A stretch of 11,410 bases of DNA from a virus. Its lineage: Duplodnaviria > Heunggongvirae > Uroviricota > Caudoviricetes. Shown here piece by piece: positions 1-11,410 of the stretch. Within the stretch, counting starts at the first letter, position 1; each line of letters begins with the position of its first letter. Where the stretch lies: IMG/VR virus record IMGVR_UViG_2585427732_000018; one strand, 5' to 3'. Under the pieces are notes generated by a model. The model was not told the origin of the DNA, made no database searches, and worked only from the letters and a program-made list of their open reading frames with translations. The position numbers and the translations under genes were made by a program.

Positions 1-1242
1 ATGGCGAGAAAAACACACCCATTAACCACAGTGCAGATCAAAGCAGCCAGACCAGCGCAAAAGGAGTACACCCTGCAGGACGGCGGAGGGCTTTTTCTCC
101 TGGTCAAACCGTCTGGATCAAAACTCTGGAGATTTTCCTACTACCGACCATCGGACAAAAAAAGAATATTGCTGAGTTTTGGATCGCTTGAAGATGTTTC
201 CCTGGCTGATGCCAGAAAACGCCGTAGCGAGTACAGGACGTTAATCAGTGCCGGAACTGACCCGCAGGACCACGAGAGGCAAAAAAGAGAGACAGAGGCC
301 CGAAGACAAGGGAACACGTTCGAAAATGTGGCGGCGGCATGGTACCAGGTGAAAATCAGCCAGAATCTGGCCCCCAACACGATTAAAGACATCTGGCGTT
401 CGCTGGATAAATATGTATTCCCGTTCATCGGCAACACGCCAATAGATACCCTCACCGCCCGAAGGTTCGTTGAAGTGCTTACACCCATCAAGGAGCGCGG
501 CAACCTGGAAACACTCAAGCGGGTTTTACAGCGCGTTAATGAGGTAATGGATTACGCCGCCAACAGTGGGCTGATTGATGCCAATCCGGCTATGAATGTG
601 CGTAAGGCGTTTCCCTCACCTGTAAAAAAACATATGCCAACAATCCGCCCCGAACAGCTGCCGGAGCTTATGCAGGCTTTATCAGTATCGGCAACAGAAC
701 GGCAGACCAGATTACTGATTGAATGGCAGTTACTGACCGTAACCCGTCCCGCCGAAGCGTCATCAACGCGGTGGGATGAAATCAACCTGGACGCGAAGCA
801 ATGGACGATACCTGCCGGACGCATGAAGATGCGCAGGGATCACGTTATCCCGCTTTCCGGTCAGGCTATGGCGGTGCTGGAGGCCATGAAACCAATCAGC
901 CACCACCGCAATTACGTTTTCCCAAGTCTGAAAGACCCACAGCAGCCGATGAACAGCCAGACAGCTAACGCAGCATTGCGGCGTATGGGATTCGCTGGCG
1001 TGCTGGTGTCTCATGGATTACGCGCCATATTCAGCACAGCAGCGAACGAGGAAGGATTCGAGCCGGACGTAATAGAGGCGGCACTTGCCCACGTCGACAC
1101 CAACGAAGTTAGACGGGCATACAACCGGAGCAACTACATAGAAAAACGCATCGTGCTGATGCGCTGGTGGGGCGAATTTGTCGAGGCTGCGGCGACGGGC
1201 GTAACCCTCGCCAGTGGTAAAAGGGGTATCCGAGCCGTGTAG
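1..1242 (+). CDS. int: Tyrosine site-specific integrase, P4-like family
   Basis: 413 aa ORF. N-terminus (KEYTLQDGGGLFLLVKPSGSKLWRFSYY...VSLADARKRR) is typical of P4-type integrases; C-terminal catalytic motifs HGLRAIF and YNRSNY (putative catalytic Tyr) are present. Confidence 0.93.
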   Translation: MARKTHPLTTVQIKAARPAQKEYTLQDGGGLFLLVKPSGSKLWRFSYYRPSDKKRILLSFGSLEDVSLADARKRRSEYRTLISAGTDPQDHERQKRETEARRQGNTFENVAAAWYQVKISQNLAPNTIKDIWRSLDKYVFPFIGNTPIDTLTARRFVEVLTPIKERGNLETLKRVLQRVNEVMDYAANSGLIDANPAMNVRKAFPSPVKKHMPTIRPEQLPELMQALSVSATERQTRLLIEWQLLTVTRPAEASSTRWDEINLDAKQWTIPAGRMKMRRDHVIPLSGQAMAVLEAMKPISHHRNYVFPSLKDPQQPMNSQTANAALRRMGFAGVLVSHGLRAIFSTAANEEGFEPDVIEAALAHVDTNEVRRAYNRSNYIEKRIVLMRWWGEFVEAAATGVTLASGKRGIRAV

Positions 1243-1319
1243 CTGTACAGAAAACCAGTAAAAACTACGAAAACCATGTAAAACCGTCGTATAATTGCAT
1301 CAAATTTAACGACAAGGCC

Positions 1320-1571
1320 GTGAAACATGAAACCGTTAAGATGCAAAAAAATATCAGATGCAATTGCGACGGGCTGCAACTGGCCCTGATGGTTCAGCAT
1401 GAATTTTGGTCAACCTACGATCCGGAGGACAGAACGACGGCCCCATCAAAAAAACAGGTAGTAGATTTTCTGGTATCCCGTGGCGCTTCCAGAAATCTGG
1501 CGGTAAGTATTGATAAGGTCGTACGTCCGGCATCTATGAAGATCGGAGGCAGGCCCAAAAAATGGCGGTAA
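1320..1571 (+). CDS. Hypothetical small protein (83 aa from GTG at 1320; alternative ATG at 1341)
   Basis: ORF followed at once by an intrinsic terminator; weak AAGG upstream of the GTG; possible -10 TATAAT at 1290-1295. No recognisable family. Confidence 0.4.
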   Translation: MKHETVKMQKNIRCNCDGLQLALMVQHEFWSTYDPEDRTTAPSKKQVVDFLVSRGASRNLAVSIDKVVRPASMKIGGRPKKWR

Positions 1572-1582
1572 CAATCCTGGAA

Positions 1583-1607
1583 GCGGCAGAAATGCCGCTT
1601 TTTTTAT
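1583..1607 (+). terminator. Rho-independent terminator
   Basis: GCGGCA-GAAA-TGCCGC hairpin followed by TTTTTTTAT, directly after the stop codon at 1569-1571. Confidence 0.7.
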
Positions 1608-1630
1608 AATTCCATTTCAAATCATCAATA

Positions 1631-1661
1631 TAAAAACGGTGTATACCGTTTAAAAACGGTG
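1631..1661. promoter_or_regulatory. Direct repeats TAAAAACGGTG x2 and palindrome ACGGT-GTAT-ACCGT upstream of alpA
   Basis: Repeats at 1631-1641 and 1651-1661 (20 bp phase); palindrome at 1636-1649. Lies in the noncoding leader before alpA. Confidence 0.4.
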
Positions 1662-1737
1662 GGAACTGTTTTTACCCATATCCGATGATTTACCGTATTT
1701 GTCACCGGAATACACCGGATTCACAAGGTAAATCACG

Positions 1738-1944
1738 ATGGAAGCAATCAGAAAAATTATCTTTCGCCAGGAAGTAAAAAAAATTATCCACATCAAGGCA
1801 GACAGCACGCTGCAAAGCATGATCAACGCCGGAGAATTTCCGCAGGGTTTTCGCGTTGGTTTACGCCGTCGCGGATGGTATGAGGATGATGTGTTGGCCT
1901 GGCAGAAAGAACGCGAACAGGAAGCACGCGGAACGGCTGCTTAA
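1738..1944 (+). CDS. alpA: AlpA-family transcriptional regulator / excision activator
   Basis: 68 aa; motif INAGEFPQGFRVGLRRRGWYEDDVLAWQ matches the AlpA-type HTH pattern (AGEFP...W...E...AW); SD AAGGTAA 8 nt upstream. Confidence 0.85.
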   Translation: MEAIRKIIFRQEVKKIIHIKADSTLQSMINAGEFPQGFRVGLRRRGWYEDDVLAWQKEREQEARGTAA

Positions 1945-2092
1945 CGGGTATCACAGATATGACAAACACGAAAAAAGCGGCCCCGATATGGAGCCGCCTT
2001 TCTGAACAATTAACCCGCTGCGCCTTATGTGTATATGATCCCAAACATAAGCACGGGGATGATAGCCGCTATCAGGCTGGTGGGCAATGCAA

Positions 2093-2281
2093 TCAGTCTG
2101 GTTCAGTTCGTTGCCATACCTGCAATGAGCGCTTTTCCCTGTATTCTTTAAGGAATTGCTCAAGGGCAAAAGCACATGGCGCGAATCTTTCTGATTCATG
2201 CTCTATCTTTCTGCGCCGTCTTTTCCGTGCCGGTGATAATGTTTTGGTCAATTCTTTATCGGTCATTGTGTTGTCCTGCAT
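2093..2281 (-). CDS. Hypothetical small basic protein (62 aa)
   Basis: ATG-initiated ORF directly downstream (minus strand) of the RHH regulator gene; contains ARKRRRRK basic patch. No family recognised. Confidence 0.3.
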   Translation of the reverse strand: MQDNTMTDKELTKTLSPARKRRRRKIEHESERFAPCAFALEQFLKEYREKRSLQVWQRTEPD

Positions 2282-2323
2282 AGCAATGCGCCGTAATACC
2301 TTACACCACGGCGCTGATGGTGA

Positions 2324-2629
2324 TTACTCTGGTTCTTTGGTCTTGCGGCGCTGGAGTTCTTCACGTGCGACAGTGACGAGCTGCCCGATCTCCTCGGCGG
2401 CTTTGATTCCGAGTTTTTCCACCTGCGCCAGTGCATCGAGCGAAGAAATCAGGGGGTTTTCTCCGCTTCCTTCTGCCTGGCGGCGGGCGATTTCACCGCG
2501 CATGGCGGTTACTATGAATCCGGCGTTGCTTTCACCGTCCAGTTTTACGGATTCCATGCCTTCAATAACATCATGCGGGATCCGAGCTGTTAGTGATTGT
2601 GATTTTGCGTTTTTTGAACCTGTAGCCAT
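2324..2629 (-). CDS. Ribbon-helix-helix-like DNA-binding protein, candidate island regulator/repressor
   Basis: Start placed at the ATG of MATGSKN because a GAGAGGA SD lies 7 nt upstream (the ORF track extends to a TTG at 2644). N-terminal LTARIPHDVIEGMESV followed by two helices fits an RHH fold. Divergent from the rightward operon. Confidence 0.55.
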   Translation of the reverse strand: MATGSKNAKSQSLTARIPHDVIEGMESVKLDGESNAGFIVTAMRGEIARRQAEGSGENPLISSLDALAQVEKLGIKAAEEIGQLVTVAREELQRRKTKEPE

Positions 2630-2651
2630 CTGTAATCCTCTCAATGAAAGT

Positions 2652-2681
2652 GTAAGACAATATACACATAAAAAGTCTTAC
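2652..2681. promoter_or_regulatory. Palindromic operator candidate GTAAGAC-N16-GTCTTAC between divergent genes
   Basis: Perfect 7 bp inverted repeat (2652-2658 / 2675-2681) located between the RHH gene start and the rightward promoter. Confidence 0.4.
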
Positions 2682-2690
2682 ATAAAAGCA

Positions 2691-2719
2691 TTGACATGTA
2701 AGCCACCTATAAATAAAGT
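2691..2719 (+). promoter_or_regulatory. Putative sigma70 promoter of the rightward (Icd-primase) operon
   Basis: -35 TTGACA (2691-2696), 17 bp spacer, -10 TAAAGT (2714-2719); followed by a structured leader (CCTTG...CAAGG and CCCCG...CGGGG hairpins) before the first Icd-like gene. Confidence 0.45.
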
Positions 2720-2825
2720 TACTTACACCTTGTTAATGCAAGGTGCAGAAACGACGAAACCCCGCACTGTAGGAGCAGTAACGGGGCTTCTAACCACCAA
2801 CGATAGCAAGATTATCGAGGCAGCT

Positions 2826-3029
2826 ATGAGAAATTATACCATACACCCGCAAGGGCGGGACTCGTACAACCTGAATAAATACATCTGGCGTTTTATCGCC
2901 CTGAGCACGGCACAACCGCGCGTGATTACCATTGAGGCCACCAGCGAACAGGAAGCACGCCAGCAATCCCCGGCTGGCTGCGTGATGGTATTCGCTGCCC
3001 GTATTCGCCAGGGGTCACATCATGCGTAA
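2826..3029 (+). CDS. Icd-like (host cell division inhibitor-like) small protein, copy 1
   Basis: 67 aa; motif YIWRFIAL...EATSEQEARQQ...VFAARIRQG characteristic of Icd-like proteins of P4-like elements; GAGG SD upstream. Hidden inside the spurious 356 aa ORF 1959-3029. Confidence 0.65.
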   Translation: MRNYTIHPQGRDSYNLNKYIWRFIALSTAQPRVITIEATSEQEARQQSPAGCVMVFAARIRQGSHHA

Positions 3030-3315
3030 AAACCGCTTGCAAAAAATTATCACGGGGCTGTATGCTTCCCCCGTCGCCCACATGGCGACCGGGTTTAGCA
3101 GCCTGAATACATCTGGCGGACAGCCGCCCACATCCGATAAGCGGTTTTTTTGTGTCCGTAAACCTACCCATACCCGCATTATGGCGGGGCGTAACGGGGG
3201 AGCCTTTGTGCTCGCTGGTTTCCAGATGACCAGTCTGCTAACCCTGTTACGTCTCGCCACCATGTTTAGCAGCGTAGTAGCGAGACTCCTTAAAATTCAT
3301 CTGGGAGCCTTTCAC

Positions 3316-3486
3316 ATGGCTGTATTCGCACGCCCTTATTTTGTCTGGCGCTTTATGCAGTGCCTGACAGACAGTATTGCAATATTCACCGTTACCGCTG
3401 CCACTGAGCGCGAAGCACGTGCACAGCTGCCGCACGCACATCTTATTTTTGTCGCCCGTATTCGCCAGGGGGGGAGTCATGCATAA
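3316..3486 (+). CDS. Icd-like small protein, copy 2 (short form; the track ORF 3022-3486 may be an N-terminal over-extension)
   Basis: 56 aa from the ATG at 3316 with GGGAG SD 8 nt upstream; FVWRFMQ...ATEREARAQL...FVARIRQGG parallels copy 1. The upstream 3022-3315 part of the long ORF looks non-coding (hairpins, repeated motifs). Confidence 0.55.
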   Translation: MAVFARPYFVWRFMQCLTDSIAIFTVTAATEREARAQLPHAHLIFVARIRQGGSHA

Positions 3487-3706
3487 AATACCCTTTGATG
3501 TTCTTGTTCATTCTGAAAACGCATTAATCCGCGCAAAGGAAATGGACGCATTACTACTTAAGTTAATTGATGTGCCGGAAAGTGGCGATGAATCTGATTC
3601 AATGATGTTTTCTGCCGTGCGTACGCTATTAACGCCTGTTATTAATGAATTAAATACAGTGATGGCAATTCACGAGAATAATAAAGCGCAGCACACCGGA
3701 GAATAA
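3479..3706 (+). CDS. Hypothetical protein (75 aa)
   Basis: ATG at 3479 preceded by GGGGGGAG SD; overlaps the stop of the preceding gene by 8 nt (coupled). The track ORF 3377-3706 is an upstream over-extension. No family recognised. Confidence 0.5.
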   Translation: MHKIPFDVLVHSENALIRAKEMDALLLKLIDVPESGDESDSMMFSAVRTLLTPVINELNTVMAIHENNKAQHTGE

Positions 3707-3711
3707 AAAAC

Positions 3712-4011
3712 ATGAAAAATAAAAATTCTGGCGTTACTGCCAGCGGCCCCGCTCGTCCTGAATTTATGAACGGCGATATTTACCGCGATAAATATGGCGG
3801 CATGGTAACGATTAAAGGCGTGGCAGAACGGCGCATCACCTACCGTCGTGAAGGCTACGAATATGATTGCGTGATGCCTGTTTATCAGTTTCGGCGTGAT
3901 TTTTCTCTGGTACAGGCAGCGCCCCGCAGTAAACCAACCAGCAGGGAGAAAGCACGCGCCAATATTCAGGAAATAAAAAAGATGCTTAACGTATTCAGGG
4001 GTAAAAAATGA
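3712..4011 (+). CDS. Hypothetical protein (99 aa), possibly DUF4222-like
   Basis: GGAGAA SD upstream; motif GDIYRDKYGGMVTIKGV...YRREGYEYDCVMPV resembles small proteins found beside primases in P4-like islands (family assignment from memory, unverified). Confidence 0.55.
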   Translation: MKNKNSGVTASGPARPEFMNGDIYRDKYGGMVTIKGVAERRITYRREGYEYDCVMPVYQFRRDFSLVQAAPRSKPTSREKARANIQEIKKMLNVFRGKK

Positions 4012-5756
4012 AACTGGCACCGAACGTAAAAAAACAGCCACGCGGAATAAAACACAAAGACACAGAGGTAATTATTTTCGCGGGTAGTGATGCCTGGTCG
4101 CACGCGAAACAATGGCAGGAGCAGGATGGCCCCGCATCCGGCGATAATGTGCCGCCTGTGTGGCTTGGGCCAAATCAGCTTGCCGAACTTGATGCACTGA
4201 AAATTGTTCCGGATGGGAAAAAGCGCGTAAGGCTGTACCAGGCCGGAGAACTGGATTTGGTGGAGACCAAAAAGATTGGTCAGAAGCTGGCGGCGGCAGA
4301 TATTCAGGACGCAAATTTTTACCCCGAAGGAATGCACGTCCAGAAGTGTGAAAACTGGCGGCGCTATCTGAATGCTGAGCGTGAAAATATTGCCGCAGGG
4401 CTTACCATGCCGGAGCAGAAAAATACGCAACTGGCACAAATGGCAGACAGTGAGCGCGCGCAGCTGCTTGCCGAGCGCTTTGATGGCGTTTGTGTGCATC
4501 CTGAAAGTGAAATCGTTCACGTATGGCGCGGCGGGGTATGGTGTCCGGTCAGCACAATGGAGCTGAGCCGCGAAATGGTGGCGATCTATTCAGAGCACAG
4601 GGCCACTTTCAGCAAGCGCGTAATCAATAACGCCGTGGAAGCGTTAAAAGTTATTGCCGAACCAATGGGCGAGCCGTCCGGCTATTTGCTGCCGTTCGCC
4701 AATGGTGCGCTTGACCTGAAAACGGGGGAATTTTCCCCGCACACGCCGGAGAACTGGATCACCACGCACAACGGCATTGAGTACACGCCACCAGCACCCG
4801 GGGAGAACATCCGCGATAACGCGCCAAACTTTCATAAATGGCTTGAGCACGCAGCCGGAAAAGACCCGAGCAAGATGATGCGTATATGTGCCGCGATGTA
4901 CATGATTATGGCGAACCGGTACGACTGGCAGATGTTTATTGAGGCCACCGGAGACGGCGGGAGCGGTAAAAGTACATTCACACATATAGCCAGCCTTCTG
5001 GCAGGGAAACAGAACACGGTAAGCGCTGAAATGACATCGCTTGATGATGCTGGTGGACGTGCGCAGGTTGTCGGGAGTCGTCTTATCGTCCTGGCTGACC
5101 AGCCGAAATATACAGGCGAAGGAACGGGCATCAAGAAAATCACAGGCGGCGACCCCGTGGAAGTTAACCCGAAATATGAAAAGCGTTTCACGGCGGTAAT
5201 CAGGGCGGTGGTGCTGGCGACCAACAACAACCCGATGATATTCACCGAACGGGCCGGAGGTGTGGCACGTCGTCGCGTGATTTTCCGTTTCGACAATATC
5301 GTCAGTGAGGCCGAAAAAGACAGGGAGCTACCGGAAAAGATCGCGGCTGAAATCCCTGTCATTATCCGCCGATTGCTGGCGAACTTTACCGACCCTGAGA
5401 AGGCACGGGCTTTACTACTGGAACAGCGTGACGGTGATGAAGCTCTGGCAATAAAGCAACAGACGGATCCGGTTATTGAGTTTTGCCAGTTCCTGAATTT
5501 TCTGGAGGAAGCACGCGGCCTGATGATGGGCGGCGGTGGCGATTCAGTGAAGTACACGACCAGAAACAGCCTTTACCGCGTCTATCTGGCGTTTATGGCG
5601 TACGCAGGCAGGAGCAAACCGCTAAACGTAAATGACTTTGGCAAGGCTATGAAGCCAGCCGCGAAAGTTTACGGACATGAATATATTACGCGGAAAGTTA
5701 AGGGAGTAACGCAGACTAACGCAATAACAACAGACGAGTGCGACGCGTTTTTATAA
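4008..5756 (+). CDS. Primase / replication initiator, P4-alpha-type (D5-like P-loop NTPase)
   Basis: 582 aa; Walker A GDGGSGKST and a downstream hydrophobic stretch LIVLADQ; start overlaps the upstream stop (ATGA); iteron origin immediately downstream, as is typical of satellite pri-rep genes. Confidence 0.88.
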   Translation: MKLAPNVKKQPRGIKHKDTEVIIFAGSDAWSHAKQWQEQDGPASGDNVPPVWLGPNQLAELDALKIVPDGKKRVRLYQAGELDLVETKKIGQKLAAADIQDANFYPEGMHVQKCENWRRYLNAERENIAAGLTMPEQKNTQLAQMADSERAQLLAERFDGVCVHPESEIVHVWRGGVWCPVSTMELSREMVAIYSEHRATFSKRVINNAVEALKVIAEPMGEPSGYLLPFANGALDLKTGEFSPHTPENWITTHNGIEYTPPAPGENIRDNAPNFHKWLEHAAGKDPSKMMRICAAMYMIMANRYDWQMFIEATGDGGSGKSTFTHIASLLAGKQNTVSAEMTSLDDAGGRAQVVGSRLIVLADQPKYTGEGTGIKKITGGDPVEVNPKYEKRFTAVIRAVVLATNNNPMIFTERAGGVARRRVIFRFDNIVSEAEKDRELPEKIAAEIPVIIRRLLANFTDPEKARALLLEQRDGDEALAIKQQTDPVIEFCQFLNFLEEARGLMMGGGGDSVKYTTRNSLYRVYLAFMAYAGRSKPLNVNDFGKAMKPAAKVYGHEYITRKVKGVTQTNAITTDECDAFL

Positions 5757-5770
5757 TTTTTTGTAATTGC

Positions 5771-5996
5771 TGTCTACCCTGTCTACCTGAGTAAAGAAAA
5801 ATACATTTAATTCAGTGCATTAAGTTAGGTAGATAGCTTTTTTTTACTGTCTACCCACTATCCACCCTCTCTACCTGATTTTACCTGAATCAGACAGGGA
5901 GGTAGACACGGGGTAGATAGTGGATAAAAGCACTCTACCCCGCTGAAAGCCGCGCCATTACTGGCATGAGGGCCACTAAGGTAGATAAGGTAGACA
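5771..5996. repeat. Iteron cluster, putative replication origin
   Basis: About 10 copies of TGTCTACC / GGTAGA(C/T)A in both orientations (e.g. 5771, 5782, 5827, 5848, 5901, 5912, 5979, 5988) in the AT-rich gap after the primase. Confidence 0.65.
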
Positions 5997-6044
5997 AGGG
6001 GAGGCACAACTCAAAACTTTTTAAACGAGGGGGTAAAAATAAAT

Positions 6045-6323
6045 ATGCACACTTCAGGGAAATTTAATAAATCACTCAAAAAACGCAGAGACAGAACAGA
6101 ACCGAAATATCGCGCGTTAGACATGACAGAGCACGCTTTAAAGGTGGCAATCAGAACGATAGACCGCCACGCGGGGGAAGGATACGCGAAAGCACATCCC
6201 GAACTGATAAGCGCATTCATGACCACGACGGCGGCAAACTTTGCCACGCTGACAGAACGGGAGATTGCCGAAGCGGAACAGGTAACAACCATCAACGTTA
6301 AAACCGGAGAGGTGGAATCATGA
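6045..6323 (+). CDS. Hypothetical protein (92 aa)
   Basis: GAGGGGG upstream at about 11 nt; stop overlaps the ssb start (ATGA), suggesting translational coupling. No family recognised. Confidence 0.5.
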   Translation: MHTSGKFNKSLKKRRDRTEPKYRALDMTEHALKVAIRTIDRHAGEGYAKAHPELISAFMTTTAANFATLTEREIAEAEQVTTINVKTGEVES

Positions 6324-6742
6324 CAGCACAGATAGCCGCTTACGGGCGGCTGGTGGACGACCCGCAGGTAAAACAGACCAGCAAGGGCACACCGATGACG
6401 CTGGCGCGTATGGCGGTCCCCCTTCCGTGCAGCCAGGCAGATGACGGAACGGCGACGATGTGGTTATCCGTCCTGGCATTTGGCAGACAGGCCGAAGCAC
6501 TGGAAAGGCACCGCAAGGGTGAACTCCTGAGCGTGGCGGGTAACATGCAGATCAGCCAGTGGACTGGGCAGAACGGAGAAACGCGGCAGGGCTGGCAGGT
6601 TATCGCAGACAGTGTAATCAGTGCGCGAACGGCGCGACTGGGCGGCAAAAAAGGTCAACAGGGCCAGGCTACTGACGCGCTGAACAGGGCAAAACAACAG
6701 GCGGGGAATGATGATCCGTACGGGGATAACATACCGTTTTAA
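6320..6742 (+). CDS. ssb: Single-stranded DNA-binding protein (SSB-like OB fold)
   Basis: 140 aa; GRLVDDPQV...W..V.AFG..AE.....RKG aligns with the E. coli SSB OB fold; Gly/Gln-rich linker; C-terminal DDPYGDNIPF resembles the SSB acidic tip (DDDIPF). Confidence 0.75.
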   Translation: MTAQIAAYGRLVDDPQVKQTSKGTPMTLARMAVPLPCSQADDGTATMWLSVLAFGRQAEALERHRKGELLSVAGNMQISQWTGQNGETRQGWQVIADSVISARTARLGGKKGQQGQATDALNRAKQQAGNDDPYGDNIPF

Positions 6743-6757
6743 GCGACGAGTGACAGA

Positions 6758-6781
6758 AGCCGGAGCAATCCGGCTTTTTTA
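6758..6781 (+). terminator. Rho-independent terminator after ssb
   Basis: AGCCGGA-GCAA-TCCGGCT hairpin plus TTTTTT. Confidence 0.7.
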
Positions 6782-6835
6782 CGGGTCCTCCTGGCGGGGT
6801 GGGCCTGAACACGGGGCGGGAGGCGCGGAAAAAAG
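6782..6835 (+). other. Degenerate cos-like relic (third copy of the terminator-cos module)
   Basis: CGGGTCCTCCTGG...ACGGGGCGGGAGGCGCGG parallels 9223-9275 (CGGGTCCTTCCTGG...ACGGGGCGGCGACCTCGCGG) but the 12-nt cosN core is disrupted. Confidence 0.5.
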
Positions 6836-6954
6836 CGCATTTTTGTGATTTTATCGTCATCATCATCATGAGCGTAATTTATTGTTTTTAATTGTTTTGA
6901 TGCAAAAAAGATGATGGTTGTGGTTAATTTTCGTTCGACATCTTTGCAGGCAGA

Positions 6955-6997
6955 TAAAAAAGCCCGATAAGGTCAGAGGTGGCTTATCGGGCTTTTG
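6955..6997. terminator. Bidirectional intrinsic terminator-like hairpin
   Basis: 10 bp stem GCCCGATAAG/CTTATCGGGC with 11 nt loop, A-tract on the 5' side and TTTT on the 3' side. Confidence 0.5.
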
Positions 6998-7073
6998 CAT
7001 ATGAGACTTTTTGGTGCACTGACACACATGATCGGGATCATCATTTCATAATTTGCAACACAACTCAATATCA

Positions 7074-7101
7074 TTGCACAAAATGCAATCATGATTATAA
7101 T
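7074..7101 (+). promoter_or_regulatory. Near-consensus sigma70 promoter of the capsid operon
   Basis: -35 TTGCAC (7074-7079), 16 bp spacer, -10 TATAAT (7096-7101). Confidence 0.55.
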
Positions 7102-7106
7102 CAGAG

Positions 7107-7122
7107 CTGGATGAACATCCAG
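7107..7122. promoter_or_regulatory. Palindrome CTGGATG-AA-CATCCAG at the predicted transcription start, operator candidate
   Basis: Perfect 7 bp arms immediately downstream of the -10; T-tract at 7129-7134 is 6 nt from the stem, so it is not a canonical terminator. Confidence 0.4.
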
Positions 7123-7157
7123 TTATGATTTTTTAAGTCGAAGAGGAATTTCTTACT

Positions 7158-7364
7158 ATGGCTGAAGAGAAAAAAGGCGGTGTTTCGGTGTACATAAGCC
7201 CCGAAATCGTGGAGGTGCTCAAGCAGCGCCACAAAAAAAACTATGAGGCTGGCGTGGCGGCTGGACTGGATCCGCTGATGACGCCGGAGCCGTCGATAGG
7301 TTCACTTGTACGCTCTTATTTACTTGCGGCGCTTGGGATGCATAAAAATTATGGGGGTGAATAA
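7158..7364 (+). CDS. Small RHH-like protein (68 aa), first gene of the capsid operon
   Basis: GVSVYISPEIVEVLKQ (beta strand plus helix) and SIGSLVRSYLLAALG (helix) suggest a ribbon-helix-helix fold; stop overlaps the capsid gene start by 1 nt. Confidence 0.5.
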   Translation: MAEEKKGGVSVYISPEIVEVLKQRHKKNYEAGVAAGLDPLMTPEPSIGSLVRSYLLAALGMHKNYGGE

Positions 7365-8419
7365 TGGCAGGCAAAGCAACGGCACTTAACACTAACCAGC
7401 TTTTCATGTACCTGAATCGCGGGGATATTGCGGATTTTAAATTCAGCCCTCTGTTTACCACGCTGTTTTTCCCGAACGTGGCGACATTCAGCACGCAAAA
7501 CATCATGCTGGATACCCTGGACATTGAAGAAGTCACCATGTCGGCGTTTTGTTCGCCTATGGTGGGTAGCCAGGTTCAGCGCGATAAAGGGTACGAAACC
7601 AGCACAATCAAACCTGGCTACATGAAGCCAAAGCACGAAATCGATCCAACGAAAACCATCATGCGCATGGCTGGAGAAGATCCGGCACAGCTTAACGACC
7701 CTACCTATCGCCGTATGCGCCTGATTACTGGCAACATGCGCCGCCAGATAAACGCCATTAAGGCACGCGTGGAATGGCTGGCGGTGAATGCGGTAACGAC
7801 CGGAAAAAACATCATTGAGGGCGAAGGCATAGAACGCTATGAAATCGACTGGAAAATACCGGAAAACTGCATCATAGAGCAGGCCAAGGGTAAAAAATGG
7901 TCCGAGCAGGATAAAGACATGCACGACCCAATCTATGACATCGAGCTTTATGCTGATCAGGCTGGTTGCCCCGCAAACGTCATGATTATGGGCGCTGAGG
8001 TATGGCGCACATTACGCAGCTTTAAAAAATTCCGTGAGCTGTACGATCTTTCCCGTGGTTCAGAATCCGCCGCCGAACTGGCCTGTAAAAACCTGGGCGA
8101 AGTGGTGAGCTTTAAAGGCTATCTTGGTGATCTGGCCCTTATCGTCTATTCCGGCAAATACACTGACAGCGATGGTACCGAAAAATATTTCCTTGAGCCT
8201 GATTTGCTGGTCCTGGGTAACACCAACAATAAAGGGCTGGTGGCCTATGGTGCGATAATGGATCAGGAAGCGGTAAGAACGGGCGCAACACAAAACATGT
8301 TTTACCCGAAAAACTGGATTGAGGACGGCGATCCGGCGATTGAGTACGTGCAGACACACAGTGCACCGCAGCCGGTACCGGCAGATATTCGCAAATTTGT
8401 TACCGTCAAAATTGGTTAA
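7364..8419 (+). CDS. Major capsid protein, phage lambda gpE-like
   Basis: 351 aa; long colinear matches to lambda gpE as I recall it: DFKFSPLF..LFF; SP.V...V.R.......IKPGYMKPKHEIDP; EDP..L.DP.YRR.R; WSEQDK..HDP..DIE.YA; RGSES....A.K.LGE.VSFKG..GD.A.IVYSG.Y; YPKNW...GDPA.E. GGGGGTGA SD upstream. Confidence 0.9.
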   Translation: MAGKATALNTNQLFMYLNRGDIADFKFSPLFTTLFFPNVATFSTQNIMLDTLDIEEVTMSAFCSPMVGSQVQRDKGYETSTIKPGYMKPKHEIDPTKTIMRMAGEDPAQLNDPTYRRMRLITGNMRRQINAIKARVEWLAVNAVTTGKNIIEGEGIERYEIDWKIPENCIIEQAKGKKWSEQDKDMHDPIYDIELYADQAGCPANVMIMGAEVWRTLRSFKKFRELYDLSRGSESAAELACKNLGEVVSFKGYLGDLALIVYSGKYTDSDGTEKYFLEPDLLVLGNTNNKGLVAYGAIMDQEAVRTGATQNMFYPKNWIEDGDPAIEYVQTHSAPQPVPADIRKFVTVKIG

Positions 8420-8431
8420 CGGGGGAATTCT

Positions 8432-8767
8432 ATGGACACTCCATACATTGAGTTATTTGCAGGCAGTCAGCAGGTATCCACGACGTTGGTACATTTTGCC
8501 GCTGATGCTGGCGTTATTCAGGAATTTACCCCGCTGATGCTGGCAGACAATGGCGAGTTTAAGCCGTGGGATGGTCAGGAATCTGGCAAGGCTGTTTATC
8601 TGACCTCGTACCCTGTGGACACGTCAAAGCAGAAATCAGCACAGTGTTACAAGACGGGGATATTCAATATTGCCGCCGTTAACTGGCCTGAGAGCGTCGA
8701 CACCGATGCGAAAAAATGCGCCGCCTTTGCGGGTTCCGGCGTATCCGTTCAGCCGCTGGCCCGATAA
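8432..8767 (+). CDS. Head decoration protein, phage lambda gpD-like
   Basis: 111 aa, about the size of gpD; conserved TPLMLAD...WDG, YKTG.F, WPES.D.DAKK.AAFAGSG motifs; GGGGGAA SD upstream. Confidence 0.8.
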   Translation: MDTPYIELFAGSQQVSTTLVHFAADAGVIQEFTPLMLADNGEFKPWDGQESGKAVYLTSYPVDTSKQKSAQCYKTGIFNIAAVNWPESVDTDAKKCAAFAGSGVSVQPLAR

Positions 8768-8779
8768 GCAGGGGGAACG

Positions 8780-9193
8780 ATGGCAACGAATGAAAGCATC
8801 ATGACGCTACCGCTGGCGAGTAAATTTAAAGCCGAAGCGCGGGCAATGGCTGACAGAGGTTTATCAACCTACGAGGCCGTATATCAACTCAACAAACTGG
8901 AAGAGCAGGACAAGCCGCGCGCTGATGCGATTATGGCGCTTCATGAGCATAAAGACTATCAGCCGCTGTTGCGTGCAATGGCAAACGTGCCTTGTATCGA
9001 TGTTGATACGGCTAAAAACATCCTGAACATGACCATAGAGCAGGAACGCCCGAAGGTTGCACCAGAGCTTACCGCAGCCTTTGAAAACTTTATGGACATG
9101 CACAGCCCACAAACCGTATCAGCTGGCATGGCATACGATGGCAGAAACCCAGGCGATGACGGCGACATCGATCGCATACTGAAAACCATCTGA
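8780..9193 (+). CDS. Hypothetical protein (137 aa), predicted helical, in the capsid operon
   Basis: Same GGGGGAA SD as the two upstream genes; followed by a terminator. Occupies the position that lambda gpFI holds after gpE, but I see no sequence similarity to gpFI. Confidence 0.6.
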   Translation: MATNESIMTLPLASKFKAEARAMADRGLSTYEAVYQLNKLEEQDKPRADAIMALHEHKDYQPLLRAMANVPCIDVDTAKNILNMTIEQERPKVAPELTAAFENFMDMHSPQTVSAGMAYDGRNPGDDGDIDRILKTI

Positions 9194-9198
9194 GACAA

Positions 9199-9221
9199 GG
9201 CCGGAGAAATCCGGCTTTTTT
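9199..9221 (+). terminator. Rho-independent terminator after the capsid operon
   Basis: GCCGGA-GAAA-TCCGGC hairpin plus TTTTTT; near-identical to the terminator at 6758-6781. Confidence 0.7.
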
Positions 9222-9222
9222 G

Positions 9223-9290
9223 CGGGTCCTTCCTGGAATTATGGCCCGTTACGGGGCGGCGACCTCGCGGTTTTTCGCTATTTATGAGCT
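9223..9290 (+). other. cos site (forward copy): cosN cohesive-end sequence GGGCGGCGACCT at 9254-9265 with lambda-like flanks
   Basis: CCCGTTACG-GGGCGGCGACCT-CGCGGTTTTTCGCTATTTATGA matches the phage lambda cos junction as I recall it; similarity to lambda stops about 30 bp to the right of cosN. Confidence 0.8.
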
Positions 9291-9398
9291 TTTTCAGGGG
9301 GGTGGTGGTGGTTTTGTTGTTTGCTCTATCTTTATGAATGAAAAGGGAAAGATGCAAACAATACACCAACCTGAAGCAGTAATTAAGTTGGTGTATTA

Positions 9399-9941
9399 AT
9401 GAAATCGCACCTGATGAACAAAAAAAACATGGCGAAAAGCTGCCGTGTAAGTGCGACAGCGTTCGACAAGTGGGGAGTGACTCCCGTTGAACGTAAAGGC
9501 CGTGAGGCGTTTTACGATGTTGCCAGCGTGATAGACAATAGGGTTAACAATGCAATTAGCCAGCTTACAAACGACAAAGGCGATATTGATGATGATGAAC
9601 TCTTACGAGTCAGGATCAGATTACTGACAGCACAGGCGGAGGCGCAGGAACTTAAAAACGAGCGCGATCGCGGTGACGTGATTGATACTGAGTTTTGCCT
9701 GTACGCGCTTTCAAAGCTGGCGAGTCAGATTTCATCAATCATGGACAGCCTCCCGCTTACTATGCAAAGGAGCTTCCCACAGATTACCCCCGCCATGCTG
9801 GATAGGCTTAAAAGGGAAGTGGTTAAAGCCTGTAATGCCAGTGCCAGAGTTGCCGACAACCTCCCACAGATACTGGCTGATTACTTGAAAGAAACAACCG
9901 GAAACGTACCGGAAAAGTTGCTACAGAAGAAAGGCGAGTAA
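9399..9941 (+). CDS. Terminase small subunit homologue (lambda Nu1-like); candidate packaging-redirection (Rpp-type) protein
   Basis: 180 aa; C-terminal two thirds (LTAQAEAQELKNERDRGDVIDTEFCLYALSKLASQISSIMDSLPLTMQRSFP) closely parallel lambda Nu1; N-terminal wHTH region is much more diverged. Alternative starts at 9414 and 9429; no strong SD for any. Confidence 0.8.
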   Translation: MKSHLMNKKNMAKSCRVSATAFDKWGVTPVERKGREAFYDVASVIDNRVNNAISQLTNDKGDIDDDELLRVRIRLLTAQAEAQELKNERDRGDVIDTEFCLYALSKLASQISSIMDSLPLTMQRSFPQITPAMLDRLKREVVKACNASARVADNLPQILADYLKETTGNVPEKLLQKKGE

Positions 9942-9964
9942 CAGACGCGCAATTATTGAACAAA

Positions 9965-10163
9965 ACTGAGAAACGACATGAAAGCGTCATAAATCGCCAT
10001 TTTAGATGATTACCGTGTCGTTTCTTTTTATTGTGTATCTATTTAAAAACAAATAGTTATGTTCGAGAAGTACCGACATGCTTTTTCCAGAAAAATTTTC
10101 ATAAACAGATAAAAACCGCGAGGTCGCCGCCCCGTAACGGGCCATAATTCCAGGAAGGACCCG
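9965..10163 (-). other. cos site (inverted copy) with lambda-like cosB architecture; cosN core at 10121-10132 (minus strand)
   Basis: 10111-10163 is the exact reverse complement of 9223-9275 (53 bp). Read on the minus strand, the flank continues with ATCTGTTTATGAAAATTTTTCTGG, an R3-like TCGGTACTTCTCGAACATAACT, an AT-rich TTGTTTTTAAATAGATAC and an inverted repeat AGAAACGACA/TGTCGTTTCT (9969-9978 / 10016-10025), resembling lambda R3-I1-R2-R1. Confidence 0.75.
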
Positions 10164-10196
10164 ACGACACCAGACTATCAGAGCGATGGGGGCACA

Positions 10197-10478
10197 ATGA
10201 CAGAAGCCGAAATACTGGGATTAATCCGCCGTGCTGGTGGAATCAGCCAGCAGACTGACGAACAGGCCACGCAGCCGGACAGCGTGACAGCCGAAAATTA
10301 TGCGCGTGTTGTTGCTGAGGTGATGCGCCGTGATGGTATCCAGCTTAATGATGTGGATATGCGCAACATACGGATCCGCGTTCTTGAAATGCTGGCCTAC
10401 CGTCGCCGCGTGCAGACGTACAGGGAAAAAGCAAAAATTACGTACCACTGGAAGAAGCCGGAGCGGTTACGGCGGTAA
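10197..10478 (+). CDS. Hypothetical protein (93 aa)
   Basis: GGGGG SD upstream; lies between the inverted cos and the right-end repeat array. No family recognised. Confidence 0.5.
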   Translation: MTEAEILGLIRRAGGISQQTDEQATQPDSVTAENYARVVAEVMRRDGIQLNDVDMRNIRIRVLEMLAYRRRVQTYREKAKITYHWKKPERLRR

Positions 10479-10647
10479 CTGGTTGATATTTTCGAAATTC
10501 GCCAGCGGCGAACATCGGGGAAACCAGCCTAACCCGTTGATATTTTCGGGAACCTCAAATTGAGGAGGTCGGAAACATAACCCGTCATATTCTGGATGCT
10601 GATAATTACCACGCAGCCCATTAAGGCCTAACCCGTTGATTCTTCCC
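10477..10647 (+). repeat. Four phased direct repeats (TAACCCGTTGATATTTTCG-like) at about 50 bp spacing
   Basis: Copies at about 10477, 10529, 10577 and 10627; also palindromes TTCGCC-AGC-GGCGAA (10495-10509) and GCGCAA-AA-TTGCGC (10700-10713). Confidence 0.6.
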
Positions 10648-11071
10648 AATTTCCACAGACTGCGGAAATTGGCGCGGTAACTTACTGAGATTAAAGCAAA
10701 GCGCAAAATTGCGCTGGCTGGTGGGCATGATGCCGATATGGTGATCCCCATAACGGAAATATCCACCAGCACGGCAACGGCAGAATAGCCACAACACAGA
10801 AAAACCACGAATATGGGGTTTTTGTTATGGCATGGGCATGATGACCGCCCCTGCTCTGAATGGTGGAAATCACCACGCAGATCATCCACCAGCTTCGTTT
10901 TTATAAATTAAACATCCGGGAAAATCCGACCCTGAATTGTGCATTTTTTCAGCAAATCATTTTAGTTATACGTTTGGTTATACGGTTTAAAAGTTGAATC
11001 ATATACATTATTTTAAATCATGAAGTTACACGCTCAATTAAACTACTCTCGTGCCGACCAAAAATCCCAAG

Positions 11072-11161: not shown

Positions 11162-11410
11162 TCAGAACGTCCAGACCACACCCGCCTGAGTTGTGCTGCT
11201 TTCTTCACGGGAGAAACGGCTGTCGATACCAAGCGTTAGCCCCGTCAATGTTTGCTCAAAGCCAGCGCCTGCATCAGTGGTCACGTTGTTGCGGCTGTTA
11301 ATTGCCGAACTCCACATCGCCGTATCGTAATTAACGCCTTTTACGCTACCAAGACGCCCACGCACGGTGTCCAGTTCTGCATCAAATACCAGCGGTTGTG
11401 CTGCCGCCAT
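11162..11410 (-). CDS. 3' end of a flanking gene (partial, continues beyond the window); possibly an outer-membrane beta-barrel protein
   Basis: Open to the window edge; C-terminus ...TTQAGVVWTF ends with an aromatic-x-Phe pattern common in outer-membrane beta-barrels. Weak inference only. Confidence 0.35.
   Translation of the reverse strand: MAAAQPLVFDAELDTVRGRLGSVKGVNYDTAMWSSAINSRNNVTTDAGAGFEQTLTGLTLGIDSRFSREESSTTQAGVVWTF

Follow-up and report, generated by a model that had tools for sequence, protein, structure and literature searches.

What kind of element carries genes for integration and replication of the phage P4 type next to the cohesive end and head genes of a lambda-like phage, all within about 11 kb? 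The question is raised by the virus record IMGVR_UViG_2585427732_000018, a stretch of 11,410 nucleotides that was analysed in full and is referred to here as the window. The original prediction, which was made from the sequence alone, described a compact satellite dependent on a lambda-like helper. The analysis indicates that the window very probably represents a phage-inducible chromosomal island (PICI) of Gram-negative type, a member of the EcCICFT073 family inserted at the 3′ end of tRNA-Pro (proL), with yejM on one side and yejO on the other, and with the life cycle proposed below. It is not a new chimera but a known PICI type, and this type is already catalogued at the yejM site. Table S1 of Fillol-Salom et al. 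(2018, ISME J; PMC6092414) places EcCIATCC25922 (CP009072.1 106749-118031, 11.3 kb) and five further PICIs at yejM, six in total. In a whole-window search, the ATCC 25922 locus matched with 96.1% identity over 94% of the window length. At least 80% of the window is present in 60 of the 5426 complete E. coli genomes, but none of them contains it in full with an identity above 96.3%. An exact 43-mer taken from its unique segment had no match among species-representative genomes. PICIs of the EcCICFT073 family were described in 2018-2019, and SatelliteFinder detects them routinely. The element carries little weight as a discovery. What it adds concerns its packaging cassette, its head genes and an antisense RNA switch.

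The sequence traits by which PICIs were defined by Fillol-Salom et al. (2018) recur here. An integrase stands at the left end, and the main genes all lie on the plus strand except ylcI/ynfO. The element measures approximately 11.28 kb between its attachment (att) cores, within the usual range of about 10-15 kb with direct repeats. A regulator of the AlpA type, albeit a weak match, lies downstream of int, and the element has its own replication initiator with an iteron origin directly 3′ of it. Tail, portal and large terminase (TerL) genes are absent, as had been predicted, and lysis genes are absent as well. Among the open reading frames (ORFs) of the window there was no match to portal, TerL, protease, tail or lysis genes in Pfam, PHROG or NCBIfam, and no non-coding gap is long enough to conceal any such gene. 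The predicted dependence on a lambda-like helper has been shown experimentally for the close relative EcCICFT073, with lambda, phi80 and CFT073 prophage 4 as helpers (PMC6092414). Helper-dependent induction, packaging and high-frequency transfer, along with interference with the helper, are documented for this relative only.

As position 1 of the window is the ATG of int, the left end was read in relatives, mainly Nissle 1917 (99.7% DNA identity to window 1-3014). In both Nissle 1917 and strain E1, yejM and tRNA-Pro precede int. No prophage DNA lies upstream of int in these relatives, so that the left flank does not contradict the original prediction. The left att copy, as seen in Nissle 1917, is the 3′ end of tRNA-Pro (proL), approximately 230 bp to the left of position 1. 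The right copy is located just before a yejO remnant. The direct repeat expected of a satellite is thus present, with 17 bp bounding the element of about 11.28 kb, although it lies at 11046-11062 and not in the predicted region of 10.5-11.0 kb. Copies of TTT(A/G)GTTATACG that match those near the right end occur between tRNA-Pro and int in Nissle 1917, so that arm-type integrase sites stand inside both ends. This arm-type repeat is given as the “att core” of the yejM-site PICIs in Table S1 of PMC6092414. The crossover core is more likely to be the duplicated 3′ end of tRNA-Pro, about 60 bp outside the arm-type repeat. The remaining flank, window 11162-11410 on the minus strand, is chromosomal and belongs to the autotransporter gene yejO, of which it contains the 3′ part. 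This gene is intact in strain E1 and degraded in Nissle 1917.

These boundaries bear on the reading that databases tend to suggest, since such loci are labelled there as phage genes. A decayed lambdoid prophage, cryptic and with no life of its own, could have left the lambda-like cos and the homologues of E, D and Nu1. This explanation is highly improbable. The element is bounded by a tRNA att repeat and arm-type sites, and all of its main genes are intact and under purifying selection. The capsid genes occur in the order E-D and not in the D-E order of lambda. The compact architecture has been found at four or more att sites with modules exchanged between the copies, and a close relative is mobilised at up to approximately 1e6 transductants per ml.

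The P4-type backbone of the original prediction is borne out by the integrase (34% identity to P4 Int), the AlpA/Vis-like protein (31% to Vis) and the helicase part of the initiator (40% to alpha residues 326-762). P4 further resembles the window in its antisense-RNA-type immunity (the window carries a C4/CI-type RNA) and in its size of about 11 kb at a tRNA. A P4-like satellite that relies on a P2-type helper would share these features, and yet it is the most improbable of the explanations considered. In a tblastn search of all P4 proteins against the window, only int, alpha (the C-terminal two thirds) and vis were recovered, with no sid, psu, delta, epsilon or cII. The core set used by SatelliteFinder for P4-like satellites (sid, psu, delta, epsilon/ash together with int, alpA and alpha) is therefore incomplete. 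The cohesive end is the exact lambda 12-mer with the cosQ spacing of lambda, a lambda-type rather than a P2-type cos, and the window has capsid and terS homologues that are absent from P4.

The protein comparison with PICIs, capsid-forming PICIs and P4-like elements fits a PICI of the EcCICFT073 type. The yejM-site islands EcCIATCC25922 and EcCIED1a.1 have the same insertion site (tRNA-Pro, yejM to yejO/narP), arm-type repeats, length (11.3 kb) and gene order as the window. EcCICFT073 itself (L005 27931-39000) has the same gene order, size and unidirectional layout. It is 88% identical to window 3681-6648, the block of DUF4222, primase and single-stranded DNA-binding protein (SSB) genes that is shared along with icd, and 94% identical to window 6956-9295, which runs from the 68-codon ORF through the major capsid protein (MCP), D and orf137 to cosQ/cosN. 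The two inverted cos copies and the right-end ORF are also shared. The differences lie elsewhere: the int/alpA module of EcCICFT073 is unrelated, its att site is roxA-phoQ, and it has perC and lacks the C4 RNA. The stretch between the inverted 65-bp repeats (9296-10085) is likewise unrelated. Here EcCICFT073 contains a cosB and rppA, whereas the window has a different cosB, an N15-like gene for the small terminase (TerS) and, on the opposite strand, a lambda-like cosB2. The architecture of the window is also found in O157:H7 (roxA-phoQ site) and in strain HZDC01 (rcnR-thiM site).

The packaging region confirms that cos, terS and capsid genes are of lambda type, with identities to lambda of 43% for E, 36% for D and 35% for Nu1. 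The exact lambda cosN 12-mer GGGCGGCGACCT occurs twice, at 9254-9265 on the plus strand and at 10121-10132 on the minus strand; by our own arithmetic, the chance expectation for an exact 12-mer is approximately 0.001 in 22.8 kb. In both copies the cosQ sequence GGGTCCTT is located exactly 30 nt upstream of cosN, which is the lambda spacing, and the nick site is followed by lambda-like sequence for about 45 bp. All elements of a lambda-type cos are thus found: cosN, cosQ some 30 nt upstream, cosB and an adjacent terS. The first site, cos1, lies 133 bp upstream of terS. In its cosB, TTGTTGTTT occupies bp 61-69, the place taken in lambda by TTCTTCTTC (bp 61-70), and an inverted repeat AATACACCAAC/GTTGGTGTATT is present at 9359-9396. 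The sequence TTGTTGTTT is the core of the N15 R3 site. The cosB of the inverted cos2 aligns with the lambda order R3-I1-R2-R1 and has R sites of the TGTCGTTTCT type; as this cosB is lambda-like, cos2 may be readable by the terminase of the helper.

The island TerS is closest to N15 gp1 (46% identity), and its match to lambda Nu1 extends over nearly the whole length. It shares with N15 the deletions seen against lambda, and its winged-helix domain clearly resembles that of N15. The C-terminal half is complete and can be aligned to the TerL-binding half of lambda Nu1. In strain HZDC01, the unit of cos1 and terS is found without cos2, which argues that cos1 is the cognate site of this TerS. In the HZDC01 island (L007 ~10950-11650), terS is related (88% amino acid identity), but the cohesive-end sequence differs and a second cos is lacking, which suggests an adaptation to a helper with another cosN. 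A 65-bp inverted repeat comprising cosQ-cosN (9223-9287 and 10099-10163) encloses precisely the cassette in which TerS-type islands differ from Rpp-type ones, and the two repeats may serve as recombination anchors for swapping packaging specificity.

In EcCICFT073, the slot occupied here by terS is held by RppA. Rpp-type cos PICIs are recognised by an Rpp of 139-154 amino acids beside cos1 (Fillol-Salom et al. 2019, PMC6739421); in the window this position holds a Nu1 homologue of 180 amino acids. The main alternative to replacement of the helper TerS by the island's own is that the island protein acts as an Rpp does, forming mixed dimers with the helper TerS, blocking helper packaging and redirecting the terminase to cos1. 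This is considered unlikely. The gene does sit in the exact RppA slot between the two cos copies, Rpp mimics the DNA-binding domain of TerS and heterodimerises through it (PMC6739421), and a true Nu1 homologue could co-oligomerise with a lambda-type TerS. However, the protein has the full-length Nu1 architecture, including the TerL-binding C-terminal half, and in principle would not need the helper TerS. In addition, the I11-F12-G13 residues of the lambda dimer interface are replaced by S-C-R in the alignment with the island TerS. Identity of the protein with an Rpp was tried and rejected on separate grounds: BLASTP against RppA gave an E value of 1.4, and no match was obtained to RppC or to any PDB chain. 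The same identity was considered for orf137 and orf93 and dropped, as neither matched a PDB chain of RppC or TerS.

The TerS cassette was found in 595 of the 5426 complete E. coli genomes and the rppA cassette in 53, in a near-identity search at a coverage of at least 80% that leaves out the divergent RppB and RppC cassettes. In complete E. coli genomes, the N15/lambda-type TerS cassette by far outnumbers the RppA cassette, which is well studied, and no experimental study of the TerS cassette was found. It is also observed that the partial third cos-like unit after the SSB gene has a degenerate cosN, GGGCGGGAGGCG, which resembles the variant cosN GGGCGTCAGGCG of the HZDC01 island.

The head genes form a block directly before cos1. 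The capsid protein shares approximately 96% identity with the putative prophage capsid protein PDB 3BQW, which we take to be c1499 of CFT073. No phage MCP in the collection compared exceeds 47% identity to the capsid protein of the window. The gene order in the EcCICFT073 family is E then D, as opposed to D then E in lambda. Downstream, residues 49-131 of orf137 resemble the extreme C-terminus of lambdoid gpC/Nu3, the protease-scaffold. By BLASTP, orf137 is 36% identical (E 5e-10) to residues 416-493 of a 501-residue S49 peptidase of a CFT073 prophage. Further matches were to PHROG 53 (3.8e-9) and, weakly, to residues 126-199 of lambda Nu3 (E 0.058). A search for homologues of orf137 returned only close relatives from E. 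coli, with a diversity too low for profile comparison. The name “phage head-tail connector protein”, which some NCBI records give to orf137, was rejected; no family match backs it, and homology was found only to the C-terminus of gpC/Nu3.

Ratios of non-synonymous to synonymous substitution (dN/dS) in this region are 0.13 for MCP, 0.06-0.15 for D, about 0.2 for orf137 and 0.10-0.12 for terS (overall range 0.06-0.22). These low values point to purifying selection, and the four genes are therefore regarded as working genes. The gpC/Nu3-like ORF is a piece of the head-gene block that was previously unremarked, and the block as a whole is under purifying selection without a known phenotype.

Such a block invites the idea of a partly capsid-forming satellite, in which the gpE-, gpD- and Nu3-like proteins would build island-specific and possibly small shells on helper portals. 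Three homologues of head morphogenesis proteins stand together, MCP, D and orf137 are all under purifying selection, the distance of the MCP from phage MCPs points to a satellite-specific lineage, and islands that occupy different att sites can have MCP and D genes with 100% identity. The sole experiments on these capsid genes, which were carried out in EcCICFT073, an Rpp-type island, gave no phenotype: deletion of c1499 or c1500 was without effect on transfer or interference, and all packaged DNA was phage-sized (PMC6092414). As the capsid homologues are dispensable there and the heads are phage-sized, own capsid shell genes do not imply own heads. Portal, protease and connector genes are also lacking from the window, and a partly capsid-forming satellite is decidedly unlikely. 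The set of TerL, portal, prohead protease and head-tail adaptor/connector that defines capsid-forming PICIs is not present either. PICIs of that class (EcCIEDL933 type) possess a complete HK97-type head and packaging set, whereas the window has only lambda-type E and D, a Nu3-like fragment and TerS.

The replication module matches P4 in part. The helicase and C-terminal parts of the initiator align with alpha, while its first 140 residues (window 4008-4430) are unlike the primase domain of P4 alpha. Primase activity is for this reason not evident from the sequence. The position of the iterons fits the rule for PICI origins given in PMC6092414.

Upstream of these genes lies a control region in which a C4 antisense RNA (3177-3264) was detected by Rfam RF01695 with 72.7 bits (gathering score 45, E 5e-13). 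Its c4-a1b1 target motif (3060-3109) scored 45.5 bits against RF03163, just below the gathering score of 46.7. With the second Icd-like ORF, window 3060-3486 is, by its predicted elements, a complete P1/P7 c4-icd immunity layout ahead of the replication genes. The ORF of 154 codons that PGAP annotates as “Icd-like” at 3022-3486 spans the C4 RNA and is probably an over-call. The best promoter-like sequence of the window probably starts a rightward icd-replication operon. The C4 RNA-icd cassette would probably help to hold the replication genes silent. No second C4-like RNA was found upstream of the first Icd-like ORF at E ≤1 in window 1200-4100, and none of four other islands (L001, L005, L006 and L007) has a C4 RNA at the gathering score. 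The pathogenicity islands (SaPIs) of Staphylococcus aureus are under the control of the Stl repressor. The C4 RNA-icd switch in some alleles may bear on how Gram-negative PICIs stay silent; a literature search found no paper that links C4 RNA to PICIs.

The C4 region also bears on the origin of this allele. The segment 3015-3680, which comprises the C4 RNA, the second icd and a small ORF, replaces four small ORFs of yejM-site relatives. It is missing from Nissle 1917 and CFT073 and recurs with 100% identity in five genomes, among them IAI39 and CE10. In IAI39 (L010 9001-9666) it belongs to a capsid-forming PICI at roxA-phoQ with an HK97-type MCP, protease, portal, connectors, HNH, TerS and TerL. 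That island has a left half in common with the window (icd, C4 and primase 95-100% identical), and both are satellites with head genes. The segment shows that classical PICIs and capsid-forming ones exchange modules. At the DNA level, MCP and D match their counterparts in the O157:H7 island at roxA-phoQ (L006) with 100% identity, and terS and SSB are 100% identical to those of the Nissle 1917 island at the proL site. From these perfect matches to different islands, it follows that the window arose by recent recombination of PICI modules that are in circulation.

It has been postulated how such an island would be moved, largely from EcCICFT073. In that island, a helper phage induces alpA, AlpA is required, transfer depends on Int, and pri-ori drives replication. 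With lambda, phi80 or prophage 4 as the helper, transfer is cos1-dependent; the helper TerS is needed (a phi80 lacking terS abolishes transfer), and the packaged DNA is of phage length and fills heads of full size (PMC6092414, PMC6739421). The corresponding parts read in the window are an integrase with att, the AlpA/Vis-like gene, a helicase with an origin, two cos and the island's own TerS. By extension, a lytic lambda-like helper would turn on alpA, and the AlpA/Vis-like ORF is presumed to be the helper-responsive activator. The island would then excise and replicate from its own origin into concatemers that are cut at cos. The large terminase of the helper would package the island into helper proheads, to which helper tails are then joined.

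The TerS-type islands would depart from this scheme in one step: they would supply their own TerS instead of an RppA that converts the helper TerS. The N15-like DNA-binding domain would read the island-specific cosB of cos1, and the lambda-like C-terminal half would recruit gpA of the helper. The inverted cos2 with its lambda-like cosB might be used by the helper's own terminase. This route would be the cos-phage equivalent of the TerS strategy of SaPIs. SaPI1 and SaPIbov1 likewise combine a satellite TerS of altered DNA specificity with the helper TerL, an analogy in outline; the proteins are unrelated, and SaPI1 packages by the headful (pac) rather than the cos route. SaPIbov5 has the cos of its helper and a homologue of the capsid protein, Ccm (PMC6092414). 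Ccm makes small capsids, and no such effect was found for the E. coli homologue. A more elaborate scheme was also considered, in which the gpE-, gpD- and Nu3-like proteins form shells on the portal and with the protease of the helper, the N15-like TerS fills these shells through cos1, the inverted lambda-like cos2 is a fallback for the helper terminase, and the C4 RNA is the missing repressor of the replication operon. As a whole, this scheme is very doubtful.

Several observations weigh against the window being a mobile PICI of the kind proposed. The AlpA assignment is weak, with a Pfam E value of 3.5e-3 that is below the Pfam cut-off. The sequence TTGTTGTTT of cos1 is 9 bp further from cosN than in N15, and in lambda the spacing is critical (PMC9026076). 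The reading of the left att copy comes from a relative and not from the source genome of the window. No experiment on a TerS-type island was found in the searchable literature, and its helper, its induction and the respective parts played by cos1 and cos2 are matters of inference. Lastly, the PICIs of IHE3034, O42 and 18098 gave little or no transfer (PMC6092414), and the mobility of any single island is not to be assumed.

Table 1. Features of the window, with positions in nucleotides from its first base
Feature	Position	Strand	Evidence or remark
Tyrosine integrase, P4/CP4-57 type (arm-binding, central and catalytic domains)	1..1242	+	Pfam Phage_integrase 5.7e-29, Arm-DNA-bind_3 4.6e-23; NCBIfam NF007246 552 bits; P4 Int 34%, E 2e-74
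Small hypothetical ORF	1320..1571	+	ORF list; hypothetical in Nissle
Terminator-like hairpin after ORF 1320-1571	1579-1602		Terminator scan
Paired 20-nt repeats upstream of alpA-like ORF	1631-1670		Repeat scan
AlpA/Vis-like helix-turn-helix regulator or excisionase	1738..1944	+	Pfam AlpA 3.5e-3; PHROG 66 (excisionase/regulator) 5.5e-7; P4 Vis 31%, E 1.5e-5
YlcI/YnfO-family gene, only clear leftward gene	2324..2644	-	NCBIfam NF041551 72 bits; PHROG 6522 5e-58
Best sigma-70-like promoter in window, 10/12 positions	2691..2719	+	Promoter scan, consensus match only
Icd-like ORF 1, 67 aa	2826..3029	+	PGAP annotation of identical Nissle gene; translation
P1/P7-type antisense RNA cassette	3060..3264	+	Rfam
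Icd-like ORF 2, 56 aa, directly downstream of C4	3316..3486	+	ORF list, translation
Small ORF, PHROG 2196	3479..3706	+	
DUF4222 protein, conserved directly upstream of replication gene	3712..4011	+	Pfam 1.7e-24; synteny in L001, L005, L006, L007, L010
Replication initiator, D5_N + SF3 helicase + C-terminal domain	4008..5756	+	Pfam D5_N, DUF5906, Pox_D5; TIGR01613 (P4-family primase C-terminal domain) above cut-off
Replication origin: 10 or more iterons TGTCTACC / GGTAGA(C/T)A, present in either orientation, surrounding a stretch rich in A+T	5764..6001		Directly 3′ of initiator
92-aa ORF, PHROG 1231, and SSB (6320-6742)	6045..6742	+	
Partial third hairpin-cosQ-cosN unit after SSB, degenerate cosN GGGCGGGAGGCG	6756..6830	+	
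68-aa ORF, PHROG 3255; end abuts capsid gene start	7158..7364	+	
Major capsid protein, lambda gpE type	7364..8419	+	Pfam Phage_cap_E 5.5e-50; lambda E 43%
Head decoration protein, lambda gpD type	8432..8767	+	Pfam HDPD 5e-18; PDB 1TD0 1.7e-13; lambda D 36%
orf137, 137-aa ORF, C-terminus of gpC/Nu3 type	8780..9193	+	
cos1: hairpin, cosQ GGGTCCTT (9224-9231), cosN (9254-9265), island-specific cosB	9196..9398	+	
Nu1-family TerS, 180 aa, N15-like	9399..9941	+	Pfam Phage_Nu1 2.3e-23
cos2, inverted: cosQ (10162-10155), cosN (10132-10121), lambda-like cosB	9950..10163	-	
orf93, 93-aa ORF, PHROG 1561, conserved at right end of EcCICFT073 family	10197..10478	+	
Tandem arm-type integrase sites, 12-mers TTT(A/G)GTTATACG	10961..10984	+	Repeat scan
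attR core CTCTCGTGCCGACCAAA, 17 nt: last 15 nt of tRNA-Pro + two bases beyond; right island boundary	11046..11062	+	

Among the minor ORFs, the one at 1320-1571 has no family match in Pfam or PHROG, and a PADLOC scan of ten unassigned ORFs returned no defence-system cargo. The ORF of 68 codons before the capsid gene varies by lineage, with 68-99% amino acid identity.

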